Shown piece by piece: positions 3,165 through 14,118 of a stretch of DNA of 20,298 bases; position 1 is the first letter of the stretch; every line of letters begins with the position of its first letter. Location: IMG/VR virus record IMGVR_UViG_2531839662_000026, one strand, 5' to 3'. This DNA comes from a virus. Taxonomy: Duplodnaviria; Heunggongvirae; Uroviricota; Caudoviricetes. The notes beneath the pieces are model-generated. The model had not been told where the DNA came from. It did no database searches and saw only the letters and a list, made by a program, of their open reading frames with translations. The position numbers and the translations under genes were made by a program.

Positions 3165-4265
3165 TCATTCCATTTCGAAATCATCAATCCTCACTTCAAG
3201 CTCCAGACTGGTTGTAAAACCGTTATCCGGGCTGACGGTATGTGTCAGAGTCGTAATGGTCCATTCCGCATCATCTATCGGCTGTTTAAAACCACTGACC
3301 TTCACAGGCATTTCCGTGTAGAGATCTGCCCGCCCTTCTGCCAGTTGTAGCGAAAATGACGCAACGCCGCGTTGCAGGCGTTCCCACTGCATTTTCGCCG
3401 CTCGTTCGGCGTTGCTCCGGTTGGCATAAGTGCGATTAAGTACCAGCACGTTTTCATCCGTACCCACCAGGTAATCGCCCTGCTTCGCTTCTGGCTCTTT
3501 CTTCTGCTTCTTAGTTCTGCGCTTACGCTTCACCGTGGTGCTTTCTTTCTTCGCAGGTTCGCGGGTATGCAACCAGCTGGCAATTACGCCCGTGTAGGCT
3601 CCGCGATCTGCCAGGGTAAATCGGTGACTGTCGCCGTCCTTGCGTGTGATAGTGATCACTGGCAGAGGTTTACCAGTGGCGCTTTTGCCCTGCCCCTGCC
3701 GGATGAATAACAGATTGCCATTTTTCACCGACGCGATGGCACCGTACTGTCGCGCCAGCCGCATCAGAAAACTGCCGTCACTCTCATTAGTCTGGTCTAT
3801 ATGCTCCACGGGCTTATCCGACAGGTCTTTACCCAGTGCCATCTTCAGCTTGTGCCGCGCGGCTATTTCCTTCACCACTTCCCCGACGGTGGTCTTATGC
3901 CACGATTTTTCACGGCGGGTATTCAGCGTTTCCCGAAAATCAGCACTTCGCGCCCGGATAGTCAGGCGGTCCGGTGCGCCAGTGTGTTCAATCTCGTCCA
4001 CTGTGAATGCCCCTTTCGGGAAAAGCGGCTGCCCCTTCCAGCCCAGCGCCAGCGTAATAACCGCACCACGGCGCGGCAGCACGATTTTTCCGTCAGCGTC
4101 ATCCAGCTCCAGATCAAGCTGGTCCGCTTCAAAGCCCCGGTTATCCGTCAGCGTCAAACTCATCAGGCGGTTATCCAGCACAGTGGTGATATCCCTGCCC
4201 TCAATACTGATGCTGAATGCGGGAGTTTTGTTGCCTTTGTTAAGCAGTTCAGAGCTGAAATTCAC
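3165..4265 (-). CDS. D: Phage tail protein D (P2 gpD homologue)
   Basis: 366-aa ORF with ...LTDNRGFEADQLDLELDDADGKIVLPRRGAVITLALGW..., matching recalled P2 gpD; located between U' and ogr as in P2. Start probably GTG, overlapping the U stop. Confidence 0.85.
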   Translation of the reverse strand: MNFSSELLNKGNKTPAFSISIEGRDITTVLDNRLMSLTLTDNRGFEADQLDLELDDADGKIVLPRRGAVITLALGWKGQPLFPKGAFTVDEIEHTGAPDRLTIRARSADFRETLNTRREKSWHKTTVGEVVKEIAARHKLKMALGKDLSDKPVEHIDQTNESDGSFLMRLARQYGAIASVKNGNLLFIRQGQGKSATGKPLPVITITRKDGDSHRFTLADRGAYTGVIASWLHTREPAKKESTTVKRKRRTKKQKKEPEAKQGDYLVGTDENVLVLNRTYANRSNAERAAKMQWERLQRGVASFSLQLAEGRADLYTEMPVKVSGFKQPIDDAEWTITTLTHTVSPDNGFTTSLELEVRIDDFEME

Positions 4266-4660
4266 GACAGCAGCCCTCCCACCGTTTTACTGATATCGCT
4301 TAAGGCAGACGTTGCCGTGTCCTGCAGATTATTCAGTTGCGCACTGAGATCACCGAACATATCGGACAGGGATTCATCCACTCGTTTGAGCGACAGGGTG
4401 AACTCAATCCGGCGCGGCATACCGTCGCGGAAAAACTCCGTTTTAGTCTGATTCAGTCCCTCAATCACATACATGCCGTAAATCGTGCCGCTGCCTTCAA
4501 TCAGGGGCCATGCTTTCCCCTGTTCTGCCATCTGCTCCAGTGCCAGCAACGACAGCCTGCCGCCTGTTATTTCCGGCATAAGAACACCGGAAAGCGTCAG
4601 CATGTCGTTTTCCGGTCCCAGAAACTGCGTGGACGGACGTCGGTTTAACGCACCTCCGGT
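4262..4660 (-). pseudogene. U: 5'-truncated tail protein U gene (P2 gpU homologue), fused to an N fragment by an internal deletion
   Basis: ORF 4262-4603 (...GVLMPEITGGRLSLLALEQMAEQGKAWPLIEGSGTIYGMYVIEG...) resembles the C-terminal two-thirds of gpU. The same frame stays open upstream to about 4660 without a start codon, then meets a stop at the junction with N'. Confidence 0.6.
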
Positions 4661-4661
4661 C

Positions 4662-4760
4662 TACGGTGAACTTGCTGGACAGTTCTTCAACTGCCACACC
4701 GTTCAGACGCGCCAGTTGCTGCAGATAAGCGTTAAAAGCAAAGCGGGTATTCTTCTTCAT
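4662..4760 (-). pseudogene. N: Remnant of major capsid protein gene N (first ~33 codons only)
   Basis: ORF 4497-4760 begins MKKNTRFAFNAYLQQLARLNGVAVEELSSKFTV, which matches the recalled N-terminus of P2 gpN (MRQETRFKFNAYLSRVAELNGIDAGDVSKKFTV); similarity ends abruptly after FTV. Sits 16 nt downstream of O, as N does in P2. Confidence 0.6.
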
Positions 4761-5752: not shown

Positions 5753-7519
5753 ATGAACACCACACTGACACCCGCAGATCTCGATCCCCGTCGGCAGGCC
5801 ATGCTGCTGTACTTTCAGGGATACCGCGTAGCCCGCATTGCTGAAATGCTGGGCGAGAAAGTTGCAACCGTTCACAGCTGGAAAAAACGCGACAAGTGGG
5901 GTGACTATGGGCCGCTGGATCAGATGCAGCTCACCACCGCCGCACGCTACTGCCAGCTCATCATGAAGGAGCACAAAGAAGGGAAAGATTTCAAAGAGAT
6001 TGACCTGCTGGCGCGCCAGTCGGAGCGCCACGCGCGGATCGGCAAGTTTAACAATGGCGGCAACGAAGCCGACTTAAACCCTAACGTCGCCAACCGCAAT
6101 AAAGGCCCACGCCGTCAGCCGGAAAAGAATGTTTTCACCGATGAGCAGATTGAGAAGCTGGAAGAAATCTTCCATTCCTCCATGTTCAACTACCAGCGCC
6201 ACTGGTGGGAAGCCGGAAAAACCAACCGCATCCGCAACCTGCTGAAGTCACGCCAGATCGGCGCGACCTTTTACTTTGCCCGTGAAGCCCTGATTGACGC
6301 CCTGCTTACCGGACGTAACCAGATTTTCCTTTCCGCCAGCAAGGCACAGGCCCACGTCTTTAAGCAGTACATCATCGACTTCGCCAAAGAAGTGGGGGTG
6401 GAGTTGAAAGGCGATCCGATGGTGCTTCCTAACGGGGCCACGCTTTACTTCCTCGGCACCAATGCCCGCACGGCCCAGAGTTATCACGGCAACCTGTATC
6501 TGGATGAATATTTCTGGATACCGAAATTCCAGGAGCTGCGCAAAGTGGCTTCCGGTATGGCTATTCACAAAAAATGGCGACAAACCTATTTTTCCACGCC
6601 ATCCAGCCTGACACACAGTGCTTATCCGTTCTGGTCCGGTGCGCTGTTCAACCGTGGGCGCAACAAGGCCGACAAGGTGGACATCGACCTGTCCCACAGC
6701 AATCTGGCCCCCGGCCTGCTGTGCGCAGACGGGCAATACCGCCAGATAGTCACCGTGGAAGATGCGGTGCGCGGCGGCTGTAACCTGTTCGACCTTGACC
6801 AGTTGCGCATGGAGTACAGCCCGGACGAATACCAGAACCTGCTGATGTGCGAGTTTGTGGACGATCTCGCGTCCGTATTTCCGCTCAGCGAGCTGCAGGC
6901 GTGCATGGTGGACAGCTGGGAAGTCTGGACCGACTTTCATGCACTGGCTCTGCGCCCGTTTGGCTGGCGCGAAGTGTGGATCGGTTATGACCCGGCAAAA
7001 GGTACGCAAAACGGCGACAGCGCCGGATGCGTGGTGGTGGCACCGCCAGCCGTGCCTGGTGGTAAGTTCCGCATTCTTGAGCGTCACCAGTGGCGCGGGA
7101 TGGACTTCCGCGCCCAGGCTGACGCCATCAAAAAACTGACCGAACAGTACAACGTGACCTATATCGGTATCGACTCAACCGGCGTTGGTCACGGGGTTTA
7201 TGAGAACGTGAAAGCGTTCTTTCCTGCCGTCCGGGAGTTTGTCTACAACCCCAATGTTAAAAACGCCCTGGTACTCAAGGCCTACGACATTATCAGCCAC
7301 CGCCGTCTGGAGTTTGACGCCGGGCACACCGACATTGCGCAGTCATTTATGGCAATCCGTCGCGCTACCACTGCCAGTGGCAACCGCCCGACCTATGAAG
7401 CCAGCCGCAGCGAAGAAGCCAGCCATGCCGATCTGGCCTGGGCAACAATGCACGCACTGTTTAACGAACCGCTGCAGGGCGAGTCCGCCAATACCAGCAA
7501 TATTGTGGAGATTTTTTGA
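5753..7519 (+). CDS. P: Terminase large (ATPase) subunit (P2 gpP homologue)
   Basis: 588-aa ORF MNTTLTPADLDPRRQAMLLYFQGYRVARIAEMLG... matches recalled P2 gpP in sequence and length; stop overlaps the Q start (tgATG). Confidence 0.9.
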   Translation: MNTTLTPADLDPRRQAMLLYFQGYRVARIAEMLGEKVATVHSWKKRDKWGDYGPLDQMQLTTAARYCQLIMKEHKEGKDFKEIDLLARQSERHARIGKFNNGGNEADLNPNVANRNKGPRRQPEKNVFTDEQIEKLEEIFHSSMFNYQRHWWEAGKTNRIRNLLKSRQIGATFYFAREALIDALLTGRNQIFLSASKAQAHVFKQYIIDFAKEVGVELKGDPMVLPNGATLYFLGTNARTAQSYHGNLYLDEYFWIPKFQELRKVASGMAIHKKWRQTYFSTPSSLTHSAYPFWSGALFNRGRNKADKVDIDLSHSNLAPGLLCADGQYRQIVTVEDAVRGGCNLFDLDQLRMEYSPDEYQNLLMCEFVDDLASVFPLSELQACMVDSWEVWTDFHALALRPFGWREVWIGYDPAKGTQNGDSAGCVVVAPPAVPGGKFRILERHQWRGMDFRAQADAIKKLTEQYNVTYIGIDSTGVGHGVYENVKAFFPAVREFVYNPNVKNALVLKAYDIISHRRLEFDAGHTDIAQSFMAIRRATTASGNRPTYEASRSEEASHADLAWATMHALFNEPLQGESANTSNIVEIF

Positions 7520-8553
7520 TGGGAAAGAGTAAGAAGAACCGCGCTGCGTCGACGAAACAGATCCAGCATAAAAGCCAGACTTCAGCCGAAGCATTCAGCT
7601 TCGGTGATCCCGTTCCTGTTCTGGACCGCCGCGAACTGCTGGACTATGTGGAATGCGTACAGATGGAGTGTTGGTACGAGCCACCCGTAAGTTTTGACGG
7701 ACTGGCGCGCACCTTCCGGGCTGCCGTGCATCACAGTTCCCCGATTGCAGTAAAGTGCAACATTCTGACCAGTACCTATATCCCTCATCCGCTGCTCAGC
7801 CAACAGGCTTTTTCGCGTTTTGTACAGGACTATCTGGTATTTGGTAACGCCTACCTGGAGAAACGCACGAACCGATTCGGTGAAGTTATCGCCCTTGAGC
7901 CTGCGCTGGCAAAATACACCCGACGCGGGTTAGACCTGGATACCTACTGGTTTGTGCAATACGGTATGACAACCCAGCCGTATCAGTTCACGAAAGGCAG
8001 CATTTTTCAGCTGATGGAACCGGACATCAACCAGGAGATCTACGGCCTGCCCGGCTATCTTTCTGCCATCCCATCCGCTTTGCTCAACGAGTCCGCCACG
8101 CTGTTCCGCCGCAAGTATTACATTAACGGCAGTCATGCCGGCTTCATCATGTACATGACCGATGCCGCGCAGAACCAGGAGGATGTGAACAACCTCCGCA
8201 ACGCAATGAAAAGCGCCAAAGGTCCGGGTAACTTCCGCAATCTGTTTATGTACTCGCCTAATGGTAAAAAAGACGGACTTCAGATTATCCCGTTGTCAGA
8301 AGTCGCAGCGAAGGATGAATTTCTGAATATCAAAAATGTTAGTCGCGATGACATGATGGCGGCACACCGCGTGCCGCCACAGATGATGGGGATAATGCCA
8401 AATAATGTTGGGGGGTTTGGGGATGTGGAGAAGGCAAGTAATGTATTTGTACGCAATGAACTAATACCATTGCAAAAAAGATTTGAAGAGTTAAATGTTT
8501 GGTTAAAAGAAAAAGTGATACAGTTCGAAGAATATAAACTTCATTCAAATTAG
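7519..8553 (+). CDS. Q: Portal (capsid vertex) protein (P2 gpQ homologue)
   Basis: 344-aa ORF MGKSKKNRA...FSFGDPVPVLDRRELLDYVEC...LARTFRAAVHHSSPIAVKCNILTSTYIPHP... matches recalled P2 gpQ closely. Start set at the ATG at 7519. Confidence 0.9.
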   Translation: MGKSKKNRAASTKQIQHKSQTSAEAFSFGDPVPVLDRRELLDYVECVQMECWYEPPVSFDGLARTFRAAVHHSSPIAVKCNILTSTYIPHPLLSQQAFSRFVQDYLVFGNAYLEKRTNRFGEVIALEPALAKYTRRGLDLDTYWFVQYGMTTQPYQFTKGSIFQLMEPDINQEIYGLPGYLSAIPSALLNESATLFRRKYYINGSHAGFIMYMTDAAQNQEDVNNLRNAMKSAKGPGNFRNLFMYSPNGKKDGLQIIPLSEVAAKDEFLNIKNVSRDDMMAAHRVPPQMMGIMPNNVGGFGDVEKASNVFVRNELIPLQKRFEELNVWLKEKVIQFEEYKLHSN

Positions 8554-8559
8554 CTTTAA

Positions 8560-8578
8560 GGCTGCCAGTTTGGCAGCC
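8560..8578. terminator. Hairpin (ggctgcca-gtt-tggcagcc) between convergent Q and the ATPase cargo gene
   Basis: Perfect 8-bp inverted repeat in the 32-bp gap between two convergent stop codons. No strong T-run, so termination efficiency is uncertain. Confidence 0.35.
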
Positions 8579-8585
8579 AGAACCT

Positions 8586-9836
8586 TTATCGCCATTTTAG
8601 ATAAAAAGCAAAAAATGGATCAGTAATATGCAACTTTCGGTCCTCCTTATCCCAATCTATTACAGGAGTTGAAGCTTCTTCCGTAGCAGCTATTTTAGCC
8701 ATTTTTTCTATAACACGAGTAACCTCATGAGCTTGTGGAGGAGCATCTTGCACCAGTTCGCGTATGGCTGATCTTAACTCCTCATACTGAATACTTTGCA
8801 TTCCTGGTTTCATATGTGACAATGCATATAATACAACTTTATATATATCTACTTCCTCACCACTTTTCAGTTTTCTAGGAATTCTGTCAGTTCGCTGATT
8901 AGGGCCACTAGCTAACTTATCAAATACTATTTTCCCAGTGGATTCTGCAACCTTTCTAAAAATATCATCATCTAAAGAATTAATAACTAACTTACTCGGC
9001 AAAGTTTCTTTAACATTATTTGCTAAGCATATAGCCTTGCAAAACTCTTGCATTAAATGAGGGCTTCCCAATGATTCATTGGCAATTTTATCAATTACTG
9101 AATCACTAACTTCCATGTTTAACAGAGGAAATCCCACTTTTGCTATTTGTTTTAGTTCATCCATTTCCCACGAAGGCATGGAAATATTTTCTAGCCGTCC
9201 GGTAATTTCTTTTTCAACTTTTACAGCATCATATCTTCGATGTGGAATGGCTATCAGTACAACTGGTACTCCATCAAAAACTAATGGTTTTATCGCTCTA
9301 ATAAAGTTACCTTGTAGGTCACGATCAAGGTAATGAAAGTCATCAATTATAAGACTAGACTTGGTTTGAGAGAGAACTTTTAGTGCAGAACTTTTTGCGG
9401 ATATCGTTCGCGATTTTTTATTACCATTTGACTTTCCATCCGTCTGAACTAAACCAGCCTCACCTGTACCTTTAACAACGAATGCACTTGCGGTCCCCGA
9501 TACCTTACCACTAACTGCAATAGCACTATTTTCTCCAGAATTAACTTCAATACTATGGTAGCCATTTAGTTTTTCTAATACCTGCTCCCAAATATCATCT
9601 TCAGTTGTAATACTCCCACCGTCAATCCATACAACATCATCGTCCATGACTGGGAATACCATTCTTGTAATTACAGTCTTACCAGACTTTGTTTGCCCAG
9701 TTAAAGTCACTAACTTACATAAATTATCTTTAGCACTCTCCAGTTTTCCATGAACCTCTCCTTCAGAGCGCTCAACATAAGTCAATTTCGGCATACCGCC
9801 AGGCACAAAAACTTGTGAAGCACGTTGTTTATCCAT
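8586..9836 (-). CDS. Cargo gene: 416-aa P-loop NTPase (Walker A GQTKSGKT, Walker B LIIDDFH), function unknown; candidate anti-phage or accessory ATPase
   Basis: Long ORF with an ATG start preceded by a GGGAAG Shine-Dalgarno-like sequence. Walker motifs are visible in the translation. AT-rich compared with neighbouring phage structural genes. No homologue recognised from memory. Confidence 0.7.
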   Translation of the reverse strand: MDKQRASQVFVPGGMPKLTYVERSEGEVHGKLESAKDNLCKLVTLTGQTKSGKTVITRMVFPVMDDDVVWIDGGSITTEDDIWEQVLEKLNGYHSIEVNSGENSAIAVSGKVSGTASAFVVKGTGEAGLVQTDGKSNGNKKSRTISAKSSALKVLSQTKSSLIIDDFHYLDRDLQGNFIRAIKPLVFDGVPVVLIAIPHRRYDAVKVEKEITGRLENISMPSWEMDELKQIAKVGFPLLNMEVSDSVIDKIANESLGSPHLMQEFCKAICLANNVKETLPSKLVINSLDDDIFRKVAESTGKIVFDKLASGPNQRTDRIPRKLKSGEEVDIYKVVLYALSHMKPGMQSIQYEELRSAIRELVQDAPPQAHEVTRVIEKMAKIAATEEASTPVIDWDKEDRKLHITDPFFAFYLKWR

Positions 9837-9873
9837 GAATACTTCCCAATTAACACAGCTCTAGTGAACTACG

Positions 9874-9902
9874 ATTCTAAAATAACATCTGAGCTTGGAC
9901 AA
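9874..9902 (-). promoter_or_regulatory. Candidate sigma70 promoter for the ATPase cargo gene (TTGTCC - 17 nt - TAGAAT on the - strand)
   Basis: Hexamers and spacing read from sequence, ~40-65 nt upstream of the ATG at 9836. Confidence 0.3.
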
Positions 9903-9944
9903 TTAACATTACATGATTTGAGTATTCAAAGCCACAAGCGCGCG

Positions 9945-9963
9945 CTCGTATCCCCGCCACGCC
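9945..9963 (-). other. Candidate cos (cohesive end) site: - strand reads GGCGTGGCGGGGATACGAG
   Basis: First 13 nt match my recollection of the 186 cos end (GGCGTGGCGGGGAAAGCAT; P2 is GGCGAGGCGGGGAAAGCAC). Lies in a GC-rich non-coding island between the Q-side and A-side gene blocks, where cos is expected. Confidence 0.4.
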
Positions 9964-10123
9964 TGCCCGCTTTATGTAGCGGTTTTCATGCGCCTGCATG
10001 ACATAAGCAAAATCCCGCCACTCCTGGCGGGCCTCAGCTAAAACGATCCTCAAACGATCATGCGGATTCATGCGGCATAGACATGCACAATCTCCAAAGC
10101 GGGCATCGAGACTTTTTGGAAAC

Positions 10124-10735
10124 CTACGTAACCACAGTTAATGTGTGCATCCTGTCTCGAATTGCATCACACGTCTCATCAAAAAGCTTGGTGATGGTTG
10201 TATGGTTCAACTCCGCCTCTTTCCAATAATTTTGCCCGTCAAATTCTGGATCGCTATGCTTAAACGATATTGACTCTGTAAGGCATTCCTTCCGGAAACG
10301 GTCCAAGATTATATAAACCTCTGGTGAGATGAACGGTTTGTTAGATTCAACACTTGTAACAAAAGTGTTAAATGCATCAAAAAAAACTTTCAACCTTCTA
10401 AATTTTCTCTCTTCAAATGGTTCGTTGGGGTCAACATGATCCAGCGCAGGCCTCAGCTTAAGCACGCTTTCTCTGGTTTCAAACATCGAATTCCAAATGA
10501 GACTATATGCTGATAACTCCTTATCAAAATACGCTTTCGTTACATAAACAGAATTGTCTAACTTAGCCTTTATTCTTTCATTAGTTGCACTCAGTTGTGA
10601 TTGAAATTCAGCAATATCTTTGTTTAGCCGCGACTTATATCTTTCTAAATAAACTTTCCCGATCCAAACAAATATGCCAGATGCAACAAAAGACACCCCA
10701 CCCAACGAAGCCAGAACTTTAAAGACTAAATCCAT
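10124..10735 (-). CDS. Cargo gene: 203-aa protein with one N-terminal transmembrane helix, function unknown
   Basis: ATG at 10735 with a GGTGG Shine-Dalgarno-like sequence upstream. N-terminus VLASLGGVSFVASGIFVWIG is hydrophobic. AT-rich. A TATAAT -10 hexamer lies about 20-25 nt upstream of the ATG. Confidence 0.6.
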   Translation of the reverse strand: MDLVFKVLASLGGVSFVASGIFVWIGKVYLERYKSRLNKDIAEFQSQLSATNERIKAKLDNSVYVTKAYFDKELSAYSLIWNSMFETRESVLKLRPALDHVDPNEPFEERKFRRLKVFFDAFNTFVTSVESNKPFISPEVYIILDRFRKECLTESISFKHSDPEFDGQNYWKEAELNHTTITKLFDETCDAIRDRMHTLTVVT

Positions 10736-10783
10736 TGCGCCCCCACCTGCAAAAATAGTATTCCATTATAAGCTAATACATTT

Positions 10784-10999
10784 TTAATCAAACAGGGGAT
10801 AATTCGCGTCAACCTCATCACTTCTCTGCTCTCCCCTGGTGACTTCCATCAAAAACCCCAGGCCGTCATATAGCGAAACGGGGAATTCCAGCTCAAGCCA
10901 GAAGCAGTCTTCATAGATGCGGCCCAACCAAAAACCTCCGCCACACTCCTTTGGGCGTTGAAAGAAGACCCAGTCGCCAAGGGTTAAACGTTCCAGCAC
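10784..10999 (-). CDS. Hypothetical 71-aa ORF (GTG start), possibly the 3' part of an amber-interrupted gene
   Basis: ORF from the six-frame track. In the same frame, 45 nt upstream, an ATG with an RBS opens MGKKDSNHQIIYRG and then hits TAG immediately before the GTG. Confidence 0.3.
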   Translation of the reverse strand: MLERLTLGDWVFFQRPKECGGGFWLGRIYEDCFWLELEFPVSLYDGLGFLMEVTRGEQRSDEVDANYPLFD

Positions 11000-11117
11000 C
11001 TAGCCCCGATAAATAATCTGGTGATTACTGTCTTTTTTACCCATGGCTAACGCCTCGCTACTCTCGTTGTTCAACCTTGCTGACGTCAGATTCAAGTTCT
11101 TACATCAGGAACGTTCC

Positions 11118-11351
11118 TTAGTGCAGCCAGCTGTCGTCTTCCCAAACCTGTTGCATAATTTCCATCACCCGCTTTTTGTCTTCATCAAGCTTTAAGCCAC
11201 TCAGCTCAACGCCGTTTGCCGACCCTTTACGGATGCGGATAGCGGTCTTGGGATAGATGGGTTGCAGGTTGCGGTAAAGCTCGGACTCCAGAGCGTCCAG
11301 GGTAGACTGGCTAATCTTCTGCTCTTTATCGATCATTATTTCAATGCGCAT
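11118..11351 (-). CDS. DinI-family protein (~77 aa)
   Basis: Translation from the internal ATG, MRIEIMIDKEQKISQSTLDALESELYRNLQPIYP...VMEIMQQVWEDDSWLH, aligns with recalled E. coli DinI (MRIEVTIAKTSPLPAGAIDALAGELSRRIQYAFP...ISEILQETWESADDWF). GAGGTG RBS upstream of the ATG at 11351. Confidence 0.75.
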   Translation of the reverse strand: MRIEIMIDKEQKISQSTLDALESELYRNLQPIYPKTAIRIRKGSANGVELSGLKLDEDKKRVMEIMQQVWEDDSWLH

Positions 11352-11361
11352 AAAAGTCACC

Positions 11362-11550
11362 TCAGCTGATGACATCCATTGAGCGGTTGTATTCGTGGCT
11401 TCTGATTTTTGCCATGAGTTCATCAGTCAATTCAGAAACCCACTGCAGGGCCAGCCCCTTCTCTTCATCACTACACTCACTAGCCGCTACAAGCTTAAGA
11501 AAAAAATCAATGCGCTGGAGCTTCAAAGACTCCAAAAAATAGTCCTGCAT
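11362..11550 (-). CDS. Hypothetical 62-aa protein, first gene of the DinI-like operon; possible Tum-like antirepressor N-terminal module
   Basis: ATG at 11550 preceded by a perfect AGGAGG RBS. Position is equivalent to the 186 tum locus, downstream of A and near cos. The function is inferred from position only. Confidence 0.45.
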   Translation of the reverse strand: MQDYFLESLKLQRIDFFLKLVAASECSDEEKGLALQWVSELTDELMAKIRSHEYNRSMDVIS

Positions 11551-11593
11551 CTTTCCTCCTATGACACCGCAAACAATACTGTATAGATAACCA

Positions 11594-11609
11594 CTATTTA
11601 TATTTACAG
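11594..11609. promoter_or_regulatory. Degenerate LexA-box-like sequence (CTAT-N8-ACAG) overlapping a candidate -10 (TATACT) upstream of the 62-aa/DinI-like operon
   Basis: Read from sequence: 16 of 20 positions match TACTGTATATATATACAGTA, with one mismatch in a core CTGT half-site. On the - strand a TTTACA -35-like hexamer lies about 15 nt upstream of the -10. Confidence 0.3.
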
Positions 11610-11703
11610 TATATAATAATCTTACTGATGTAAAACGTTTTTTTACGTTCATCAGCCTGATATGCCTGGTATTATTAAGAGCACGAATTGTTAACCCGCG
11701 TAA

Positions 11704-14118
11704 TTAATACAGGTTCCGCCACTTATCATCTTCCTGCAAACGCTGGTTCCGATAGAAGACACGCAGGCCTGCTCCTGACGGAATACTGCCGCCGCGAAGG
11801 AGTAAATCGACCTCTTTCTCGCTGCCATCAAATCCTCTGGACTTCAGTTCATAGACGAGCTGCTGTCGTTGATGGTCTGTAATTCGCTGTTTGTAGTCTC
11901 TACGCCGTTTCGGTTTCACCAGGCGTAACCTTGCAGCCAGTTCCCGGCGCTCTTTTTTGTTCATACTGTGCAGGTAATCGTGCAACTCCTTGTCATCCAT
12001 GTGGGTAATGTCCGTTCTGGTATCCCCATCAGCTGATTTGTCTTTCCCTTGTTGGTTCAAATTTTCAGCAAGGGGACAGTTATTGCCACGAGTCCAAGGG
12101 GCGCAAGCGCCCTGGTCGGCTGCCGCCTCCTGAACGTCAACGGCCTTACGAACCATTTTCCACTTCACCGCATGAGTGCAGATCTTGCCCTCTGCAATGG
12201 GTGACCAGATGCCATAAATACGAATACCGTGATCGCCATAGGCGGTTGGCTCTTCGTTGATTTCATAAGCGGTTCTGATGAGGTGATATTTACGGGGAAC
12301 CAGTACGCCGCCCTGCTTCATGATATAGGTGGCAAAACAACCAGCATCAGCAGCAGCCAGAATGGCATCAAGGCGCGGGTTATCCAGTACCGGCGCACCT
12401 GCTTTTTTGTCACCCTGTTGCCTTGCCGCCTGACCAGCCAGCAATCGCAGTTCACGGTAAGCCTGACGCCCCGGAATGCCAAAGAAGCGGAATTGCTGAA
12501 CACGATGCAGAGACGCCCAGGCATTAACGTATTCAGCGTTATCACGCAGGGATTTACCCGTTTCCTTGCTGATCTCCCCAGCCAGACCACGCCCGTCAAT
12601 GTTCTTACTGATGTATTTCGCGATATAGCTTGTTGGCGTACCTTTGCGCGGGTTTATCAGCTCAGACTTAAAGCGTGGTCCCGTGTTATTGCCCAGCTCC
12701 TCGCGGTCTTCACGGATGGCAAACTTACGCAGTAATGCAGTGATGGCGCGGCGGTCTTTTTTACGCATGAAACACATGAGATGCCAGTGCACAGTACCGT
12801 CATGATGCGGCTCAGCTACCCGCACGCCATACCAGCGCAACTCGGCTTTATGCATAGCCTTACGAAATGCAGCAAACATGCCGACCAGATAATCGCTACT
12901 TTGTCTTACCGTCGCGTTTGTCCAGGTCGGGTTTGGTCTGCCGTTATTGAGCGTGGAATGGAAACGCGACGGACAGGTGATAGTGTAGAAAACGGCACAG
13001 TCACTGCGCATTTCCGCGATAAGCTCCAGACCTTTAACACAGGCCATCATCTCATTGCGGCGATGCGCCGGGTTGCTGCTGCTGGCGTTTACCACATCTT
13101 CCATATCCAGCGTGTCGCCGTCTTCGTTCACCAGTTCATGAGAACGAAAAAACTCCAGCGACTTACGGCGCTGCTCACGTTTATGCATCACGGCTTCATA
13201 GCTGACATAGGGGGATGCTTTTTTGCTGACCAGGCAGACAGCACGCAACTGCTCTTCCCGCCATTCGCAACGCATCTTCCATAATTTCCGATACCACCAG
13301 TCGGCACACAACATACGCGCCAGCGAACCCGGGATGAGTTCATAGGGCACTGGTTTGCGGCGGTTTCTTTTCCGACGAAGTTTCTCAAATGCAGGCGGGA
13401 TAACATCCAGACGCAGGGTTTCCGCTGCCACCTTTTCCCATGTCTTGCGGATTTCTTCTGGCTTAACGTCATCGGTGGCATACAAATCACCACAAGCGTC
13501 CTCAAGACACATGCTCATATGCGCTGCTACCAGGGTGGACAGGCGTTTCACCTGATCCTGGCTCATTTCAGGCAGGATCAGCAGACCCTCCAGCCCTTGA
13601 TGGCTTGCCATAAAACGGAAAGAAACAGATAGCTGACTGTCACGTACACAATCCAGTCGCTCCAGACATGGCTTAATCGTCTCACGCAAATAGCGGGAAT
13701 AAGCCTTTGGCCTGCCCAGGCTGCTGAAGTATTCAATACGTTGCATCAGCGGCTTGCTGATATGGGAAGGCTGGGCGTTTACGTCCGCCAGAATGACCAT
13801 GTCCGGATTAAAACGCTGCTGCTCATGCGCCAGCTTTGCCCGGCTAATGAGCTTATCCTGCTCCATTTCGCGCTGGACAGGATCACGGGATTCATTAAAG
13901 AAATAACGCTCCCAGACCTGCTCACTCAGTGCCTCGCGGCGCAGTTGTTCCTGCTCGTTATCGGCAGCGTACAGAGTGATCAGGTTTGAAAGTGCAGACT
14001 CCGGCGCAACTTCCGCCGGGTCCAGATAAGGGTTAATGGCCTTTTTCGAGCCGTTCCATGAAAATGCTGCGGCGGCCTCGTTAAAGCCGCTGCAATTGTT
14101 CATATCGTCATGACTCAT
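11704..14118 (-). CDS. A: Replication initiation endonuclease (P2 gpA family rolling-circle initiator)
   Basis: ~800-aa ORF with the conserved tyrosine motif [10 protein letters not shown] and overall similarity to recalled P2/186 A. Start placed at the ATG at 14118, which overlaps the dam stop (ATGA); the ORF track extends to a GTG at 14124. Confidence 0.88.

Follow-up and report, generated by a model that had tools for sequence, protein, structure and literature searches.

The virus record IMGVR_UViG_2531839662_000026 of IMG/VR (20,298 nucleotides, the whole of which is referred to here as the window) carries two neighboring genes on its minus strand, on either side of a candidate cohesive-end (cos) site: an open reading frame (ORF) of 203 codons, p203 (10124–10735, ATG start; RefSeq WP_000366630.1; phrog_26391, E 7e-142), and a gene encoding a 416-residue P-loop ATPase (8586–9836). 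The question raised by this locus is whether p203 is one half of a two-gene system or stands alone. A preliminary description had placed p203 on the strand of the ATPase and 287 bp upstream of it, which our coordinates confirm (gap 9837–10123), and had proposed it as a possible partner of that protein. We instead read p203 as an autonomous single-gene cassette at a cos-flanking hotspot, most likely a lone prophage-encoded phage-exclusion factor (probability roughly 0.7). That the cassette is an independent, single-gene one is the part of this reading in which we place high confidence; an anti-phage function, which is drawn from position, falls a little short of even odds.

Two slots flanking the cos site

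Rousset et al. (2022; PMC9122126) defined the hotspot of P2-like phages that is bounded by the genes for replication (gpA) and for the portal (gpQ); in their Table S5B, p203 is system 39, a single gene with "1 TM" (one transmembrane helix), 103 occurrences and no domain. Table S5A of the same study gives arrangements of p203 with DUF4145, a KAP nucleoside triphosphatase (NTPase) or the ATPase (PMC9122126). The status of p203 as hotspot cargo is thus already published; any role in phage exclusion we infer from position only.

Both genes occur together in only two of 5,426 complete Escherichia coli genomes (UMNF18 and OY754357), with 50 of the 52 p203 genomes lacking the ATPase and 8 of the 10 ATPase genomes lacking p203. 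Similarly, the ATPase is present in 2 of 20 p203 loci from IMG/VR, and p203 in 2 of 9 ATPase loci. In this check of co-occurrence, ∼95% of the p203 copies are without the ATPase and ∼80% of the ATPase copies are without p203, so that the two genes mostly occur apart in both collections and the proposed partnership is not borne out. Independent occurrence, which the preliminary description had named as the outcome that would speak against a partnership, is essentially what is observed. Of the two possibilities that the description raised, only that of independent cargo genes stands, and not that of a two-gene module assembled on circularization. A defense system with halves that are joined only on circularization is not what these data show, and experimental effort can be spared accordingly.

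The 20 IMG/VR loci, chosen for having p203 and extending to the portal gene, hold at least 11 unrelated cargos in the slot opposite p203, between cos and the portal gene. These include DUF4145 (four loci), a retron-like reverse transcriptase (RT) pair (four), a KAP-type NTPase (three), the ATPase (two, with alleles 69% identical to each other), a phosphoribosyltransferase (PRTase) and DprA (ShosTA-like) pair, a HipA-like pair, an OLD-like ABC ATPase, a RelA/SpoT-like protein, and more (names other than those of the ATPase and DUF4145 were read from the translations). The pairing of p203 with DUF4145 is found in phage Cartapus and in strain E47. On the gpA side of cos, the ATPase loci carry a DUF8087 protein, a secreted 141-residue protein, DUF6236 with the insertion sequence IS1, other cargo, or nothing (L126 and L127). 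The hotspot therefore behaves as a pair of slots, separated by cos, that assort independently of each other, and this matters for parsing the gpA–gpQ "gene arrangements" into systems. In such a scheme p203 would be passed on and swapped without regard to the ATPase, which occupies the second slot, from cos to the portal gene. Turnover of that second slot (equivalent to 8554–9936 of the window) is very fast compared with the opposite side of cos: across L005–L025, at least 11 cargos face the same p203 allele group, and the slot is empty in P2.

These observations bear on a system split by cos, with its genes brought together only when the genome is circular or integrated as a prophage, in which the ATPase would be the sensor or motor and p203 the membrane effector. 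Such a pairing of an ATPase with a TM effector is a common design among defense systems, and the shared strand and the 287-bp distance would suit it. There is also a small excess of joint occurrence, which weighs against full independence of the two genes: two E. coli genomes are observed versus 0.3–0.4 expected (Fisher p = 0.04–0.06), and the 2 of 20 p203 loci in IMG/VR compare with a background of ∼0.7%, with ATPase alleles that, in these two joint loci, are only 69% identical to each other. With only ∼290 bp between the two sites, physical linkage is expected to produce linkage disequilibrium, and we do not read the slight excess as function. The consistent co-occurrence that a two-gene system spanning cos requires is absent, and p203 faces systems that are complete and self-sufficient (retron-like RT, ShosTA-like, KAP NTPase, and OLD-like). 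The ATPase itself is found with an empty opposite slot and matches a candidate model, PDC-S59, of its own, and no ATPase neighbor adjoins any of the distant p203 homologs inspected. Along with the terminator-like and promoter-like sites that lie between the two genes, these points make the split system extremely improbable.

The position given for cos in the preliminary description, between the two genes, proved correct. On the minus strand, GGCGTGGCGGGGATACGAG (9963→9945) can be aligned both to the 19-nt cosL/cosR that is annotated in P2, GGCGAGGCGGGGAAAGCAC, and to a site labeled "putative cos site" in phage Cartapus. This 19-nt cohesive-end equivalent (9945–9963) is part of a block (9937–10088, strand unassigned) that is conserved in 1,273 of the 5,426 complete E. 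coli genomes. Downstream of p203, within the conserved cos-flanking block, lies a terminator-like hairpin, CCCGCCAGGAGTGGCGGG (10031–10014), followed by ATTTTGCTTA (10004–10031 in total, minus strand). A separate promoter-like site, TTGTCC-17-TAGAAT (9874–9902, minus strand), occurs 38 bp upstream of the ATPase start; because it is outside the conserved cos block, it would belong to the leader of the ATPase cassette. Both are consensus matches only. A 64-residue ORF (9877–10071, minus strand; WP_071533703.1, hypothetical) spans the cos core and its conserved flank, and has an internal stop in strain 64EVA. Its conservation is attributable to that of cos itself, and it is probably not a gene.

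The p203 cassette and the small gene upstream

Sequence comparison identifies the p203 ORF as a genuine gene. The ratio of nonsynonymous to synonymous substitution rates (dN/dS) is 0.12 relative to an 82%-identical Enterobacter-type ortholog, indicating purifying selection; full-length orthologs are present in Enterobacter and Citrobacter, and the wider family has 921 representatives (see below). Expression of p203 may be driven by a putative promoter (TTGATT at 10791–10786, a 15-nt spacer, and TATAAT at 10770–10765) together with a Shine-Dalgarno sequence, GGTGGGGG (10747–10740), a block of signals at 10740–10791 of the minus strand that was read from the sequence and is kept in E47, Cartapus, and the Enterobacter-type locus L023. 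The promoter scan demands a spacer of 16–18 nt, and therefore missed this promoter. In many genomes, RefSeq names the proteins WP_000366630.1 and WP_016237789.1 "valyl-tRNA synthetase." The name is an annotation artifact: nothing supports it but a coiled-coil match to Val_tRNA-synt_C over residues 31–68, which at 16.7 bits falls short of the 25.9-bit cutoff.

The p203 cassette (∼10089–10783, ∼0.7 kb) has a G+C content of 38%, versus 52–60% in the phage backbone. It is inserted in the gpA half of the hotspot, with a semi-conserved small gene on one flank and cos on the other. In both location (between gpA and gpQ, adjoining cos) and variability (present or absent, and replaced by unrelated genes, in related phages), p203 behaves as hotspot cargo. 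It is patchily distributed: 41 intact copies and 11 decayed remnants were located (blastn, word size 11) in a total of 52 of the 5,426 complete E. coli genomes, compared with 1,273 genomes bearing cos. In L040 and L041 (E. coli RM10410, 2012EL-2448, and nine similar genomes), a 90%-identical, decayed p203 that is unannotated or present as a 114-residue fragment lies in a degraded P2-like remnant, beside an intact PRTase and DprA (ShosTA-like) pair and an integrase pseudogene; here the cargo has decayed on one side of cos and been retained on the other.

The position taken by p203 is filled in P2 by tin and old, phage-exclusion genes for lysogenic conversion at the right end of that phage, with no cargo between cosL and Q. 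As with p203, tin and old are non-essential, low-G+C, variable cargo of the gpA–gpQ hotspot (PMC9122126), and they share the same sub-slot, between the gpA/orf91-type genes and cosR. Transcription of tin and old, however, starts at a promoter close to cos and runs the other way, and there is no relation in sequence or fold: the two products are soluble, Old being an ATPase-nuclease, whereas p203 is a predicted bitopic membrane protein. Elsewhere the slot contains a protein with an RNRIAHHEP motif, read as abortive-infection (Abi)-like, plus a second ORF; a 372-residue protein; proteins with two TM helices, one of which (L113) resembles Rousset system 30; or a zinc-ribbon protein resembling the Rousset DUF4145 system (system 29). 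The names of these alternative cargos were read from their sequences rather than obtained from a scan.

The small gene directly upstream of p203 (phrog_2100; 10784–11044, minus strand) encodes 86 residues in relatives, including E47, Cartapus, and L023. In the window, a CAG to TAG nonsense codon at 11000–11002 cuts this gene, and a 71-residue ORF (10784–10999) restarts at a GTG directly after it. It is conceivable that p203 and this small gene (71 or 86 residues) form a two-gene operon: the small gene is directly upstream of every intact P2-like p203 (41 E. coli genomes and 21 IMG/VR loci), on the same strand, with a gap of 48 bp. However, p203 is intact both here, where the small gene is truncated, and in Enterobacter-type loci, where a frameshift in a run of T residues disrupts it. 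A search with the small protein retrieved 80 IMG/VR loci, of which 63 are P2-like and without p203; in most of these 63, cos follows ∼135 bp past the stop codon of the small gene, i.e., the slot is empty. Homologs of the small protein are also found in P22-like, SSU5-like, and Klebsiella phages without p203, the G+C content of the small gene is like that of the backbone and not that of cargo, and the distant p203 homologs are without it. The small gene thus appears, from these comparisons, to be a semi-conserved P2-like gene and not an obligate partner of p203, and a shared operon is very unlikely.

The p203 protein, its family, and its possible function

Two features given for p203 in the preliminary description, a single N-terminal TM helix and the lack of a recognizable catalytic motif, hold. 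The only hydrophobic segment spans residues ∼3–27 (maximum Kyte-Doolittle hydropathy of 2.0 over 19 residues, with no other window >1.6), and neither a family nor a catalytic match was obtained: p203 has no match above cutoff in Pfam, NCBIfam, or PADLOC, and nothing was returned by a sequence and profile search of the PDB. When p203 and 25 diverse homologs were compared with Pfam, NCBIfam, and PADLOC, the outcome was just sub-threshold coiled-coil noise (Val_tRNA-synt_C, Apolipoprotein, and LeoBC).

Three segments are predicted (all minus strand). The first is a glycine-rich TM helix (LGGVSFVASGIFVWIG; codons ∼4–26, 10658–10726), assigned from hydropathy and flanking charges. It is followed by a coiled-coil stalk (codons 27–62, 10550–10657), as suggested by a continuous helix in the AlphaFold2 model and by the sub-threshold coiled-coil Pfam matches, and by an up-down four-helix bundle (codons 63–199, 10139–10549), predicted to be cytoplasmic, with conserved E73, W81, R88, P134, F135, E154, R193, and R195. 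The AlphaFold2 model from a 52-sequence alignment has a predicted local distance difference test (pLDDT) score of 84.8 (79.7–84.8 over five models) and agrees with a model from a shallower alignment; one helix covers residues 2–92 (TM, stalk, and first bundle helix), and the others cover 107–131, 138–160, and 167–199. Stalk length is variable, and homologs of 239–272 residues have longer stalks. Across the 25 diverse homologs, E73, R95, P96, P134, F135, E154, R193, and R195 are invariant; across the 52 aligned homologs, W24, E73, and F135 are invariant, and G26, K27, W81, R88, P134, E154, R193, and R195 are ≥90% conserved. A K/R-rich segment after the TM helix (GKVYLERYKSRLNK), as opposed to an almost uncharged six-residue N-terminus, predicts an N-out/C-in topology, and the same orientation fits a homolog with an extra N-terminal signal-like helix (P0099). 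Overall, p203 is predicted to be a bitopic inner-membrane protein.

Small membrane proteins that act in exclusion or abortive infection are known from temperate phages, e.g., HK97 gp15 and T4 Imm. These two, along with P4 gop and the "1 TM" partner of the Rousset RT-nitrilase system, are like p203 in being small membrane proteins of prophages or satellites at moron or hotspot positions. Superinfection exclusion (Sie)-type proteins share no homology with p203, and the p203 family is far wider in distribution than is typical of them. The RT-nitrilase partner is not homologous to p203 (hhalign probability 0.3%), and orf1 of Haemophilus phage HP1, a match in BFVD with the same architecture and from a P2-like phage, was also ruled out (profile comparison probability 0.3%). 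LemA and DUF4760 are families that combine a TM helix with a helical bundle; both were excluded for p203 by the lack of a Pfam match. A sensor domain of the 4HB_MCP type, as in chemoreceptors and histidine kinases, was rejected on several grounds: there is no Pfam 4HB_MCP match, p203 has one TM helix and no signaling domain, and its bundle is predicted to be cytoplasmic rather than periplasmic. The resemblance of the p203 bundle to the Tar/Tsr ligand-binding domain, to 4k0d, and to the FAT domain is at the level of fold only (7–12% identity; Foldseek E ≥0.03). Within the Rousset catalog, the single-gene entries with only TM helices are systems 27 ("3 TM"), 30 ("2 TM"), and 39 ("1 TM," p203), which are candidate entries of the catalog.

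A word-indexed search recovered close relatives of p203 only (≥66% identity; Escherichia, Enterobacter, and Citrobacter). An exhaustive search with a hidden Markov model (HMM) profile extends the family to 921 representatives (50% clustering), of which 388 reach E ≤1e-10. Almost all of the representatives are 180–270 residues long and have the same layout, and they come from Acidobacteriota, Nitrospirota, Bacillota, Planctomycetota, and Proteobacteria. Nine distant homologs examined in their contigs are lone genes with no recurrent neighbor, found next to an insertion sequence and an HsdM fragment, a phage integrase, HicB/MqsA/PIN genes, or housekeeping genes. Two phage homologs occur at moron positions, namely beside the CI region of Pseudomonas phage Riah and between the terminase genes of Clostridium phage Maintenon.

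The N-terminal part of p203 also recurs in other proteins. One genome per species was scanned with motifs from distant homologs; a first scan with the close-family alignment returned nothing, and a sub-family alignment gave 80 loci (L138–L217). An N-terminal module of ∼65 residues (the TM helix, "LGG...SWLGKVWANR," and the start of the coiled coil; codons 1–62, 10550–10735 of the window) is found in 80 of 80 loci (E 1e-11 to 1e-24), which represent many phyla, and the C-terminal bundle of p203 in only ∼25, a proportion that is uninformative, as the loci were chosen via that same motif. The remaining proteins (180–440 residues; Vibrio, Aeromonas, Shewanella, Marinobacter, Bacteroidota, and others) have unrelated C-terminal regions of 110–370 residues without a match in Pfam or PADLOC. 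The sharing of one conserved membrane module among several different C-terminal domains is real, and points to the TM module as the functional core held in common and to the C-terminal domain as the part that varies. The recurrence is a modest lead to a modular membrane-protein family that is in no database. It is only a tentative suggestion, with the odds clearly on the other side, that the p203 family and the proteins sharing its module are a new, widespread class of one-protein, membrane-acting anti-phage factors with a common TM effector and an exchangeable C-terminal sensor.

If p203 is an exclusion or abortive-infection factor, it would act on its own. Its four-helix bundle may bind or sense a phage or host component, after which the TM and juxtamembrane module would work at the membrane, either oligomerizing to make it permeable (abortive infection) or hindering the entry of DNA. 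The specific mechanism of a sensor bundle coupled to a TM effector is decidedly doubtful.

The main rival to exclusion is a membrane function unconnected with defense, i.e., p203 as a general membrane or stress factor, or as an accessory of lysogenic conversion or of lysis or induction, maybe expressed with an SOS-controlled operon upstream. The breadth of the family across many phyla, the many copies in non-mobile contexts, the lack of a matching model in the defense databases, and a LexA-box-like site upstream, on the same strand (described below), would all fit such a role. Set against these, p203 occupies the exact slot in which tin/old and the putative Abi-like, DUF4145-like, and 2-TM cargos are swapped, and its distribution among the cos-bearing E. 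coli genomes is patchy; elsewhere it is beside integrases, insertion sequences, and toxin-antitoxin genes. Its G+C content is low. Decayed copies exist, as expected of dispensable cargo. We consider a non-defense function unlikely, and retain a lone phage-exclusion factor as the preferred reading.

Several further observations weigh against that reading. Many distant homologs are in ordinary chromosomal contexts (near SecA, TatAC, and response regulators), which a general membrane function fits as well as defense does. A PADLOC scan of 140 naive ORFs ≤3 kb from family members and of 140 at 6.5–10 kb gave matches to 257 versus 114 HMMs (HMMs being counted, not proteins), without interpretable enrichment: defense genes are in both sets alike, with GajA/PtuA/AriA-like ATPases and PDC-S04 in the near set, and a type I restriction-modification (RM) system and MADS components in the far set. 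The topology is predicted from charge bias alone, and a four-helix bundle is a generic fold, so that the modeled structure is uninformative on function. No PADLOC model fits p203. It is not among the systems cloned and tested by Rousset et al. (2022; PMC9122126), it was not found in those supplementary files of Vassallo (2022) that are in text format, and no mention of its accessions was found in the literature searched. As a 0.7-kb, single-gene candidate with its own putative promoter, and with 103 loci in the Rousset survey, p203 is frequent enough to merit a plaque assay.

Prophage context and neighboring features

The ATPase gene is a separate cargo cassette in the cos–portal slot. Its product matches the PADLOC HMM PDC-S59 over residues 7–415 of 416 (E 1.2e-31), with AAA_22 just below cutoff, and its translation contains the Walker A motif GQTKSGKT and the Walker B motif IIDDFH. 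This full-length likeness to PDC-S59 is a feature of the ATPase and not of p203. PDC denotes a set of 145 untested candidates, of one or several genes, that were picked out for their position inside BREX, DISARM, and type I RM systems; no mention of PDC-S59 was found in the literature searched. There is also a weak local similarity to LmuA/DUF4297 (residues 301–365, E 4e-4). The ATPase is found in 10 of the 5,426 E. coli genomes, seven copies being near-identical and three at 70% identity; at least three alleles occur in P2-like phages (100%, ∼80–90%, and ∼69% identity), and a 33%-identical relative is present in a non-P2 contig (L132).

At 100% identity, the window is found in the chromosome of E. 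coli UMNF18, within a 186/P2-like (Peduoviridae) prophage adjoining ybjL. The minus-strand gene order is gpA (11704–14118), a 62-residue ORF (11362–11550), a DinI-family gene (11118–11351), the small ORF, p203, the 287-bp spacer, and the ATPase gene, followed by the portal gene gpQ on the plus strand (7519–8553). Upstream of the 62-residue ORF and the DinI-family gene is a LexA-box-like sequence, TACTGTAAATATAAATAGTG (∼11590–11640, with the box itself near 11594–11611; minus strand, and thus the strand of p203), which departs from CTGT-N8-ACAG at one position and overlaps a putative -10 element downstream of a TTACAT -35 element. Matches to the LexA-box pattern in the window (11 versus 6.4 expected) are not above chance. 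The site suggests that the two genes form an operon under SOS control, which we take to be comparable to the tum operon of phage 186.

According to the RefSeq annotation, a partial tail gene abuts a partial major capsid gene at ∼4262–4760 of the window, and the prophage is defective. Between N and the tail genes, most of the genes for morphogenesis have been lost; ogr, D, O, P, and Q are kept. This prophage copy is therefore unable to make the linear virion genome, with the two genes at opposite ends, that the preliminary description had pictured. A related prophage remnant, with a different deletion, is found in strain ZH177.

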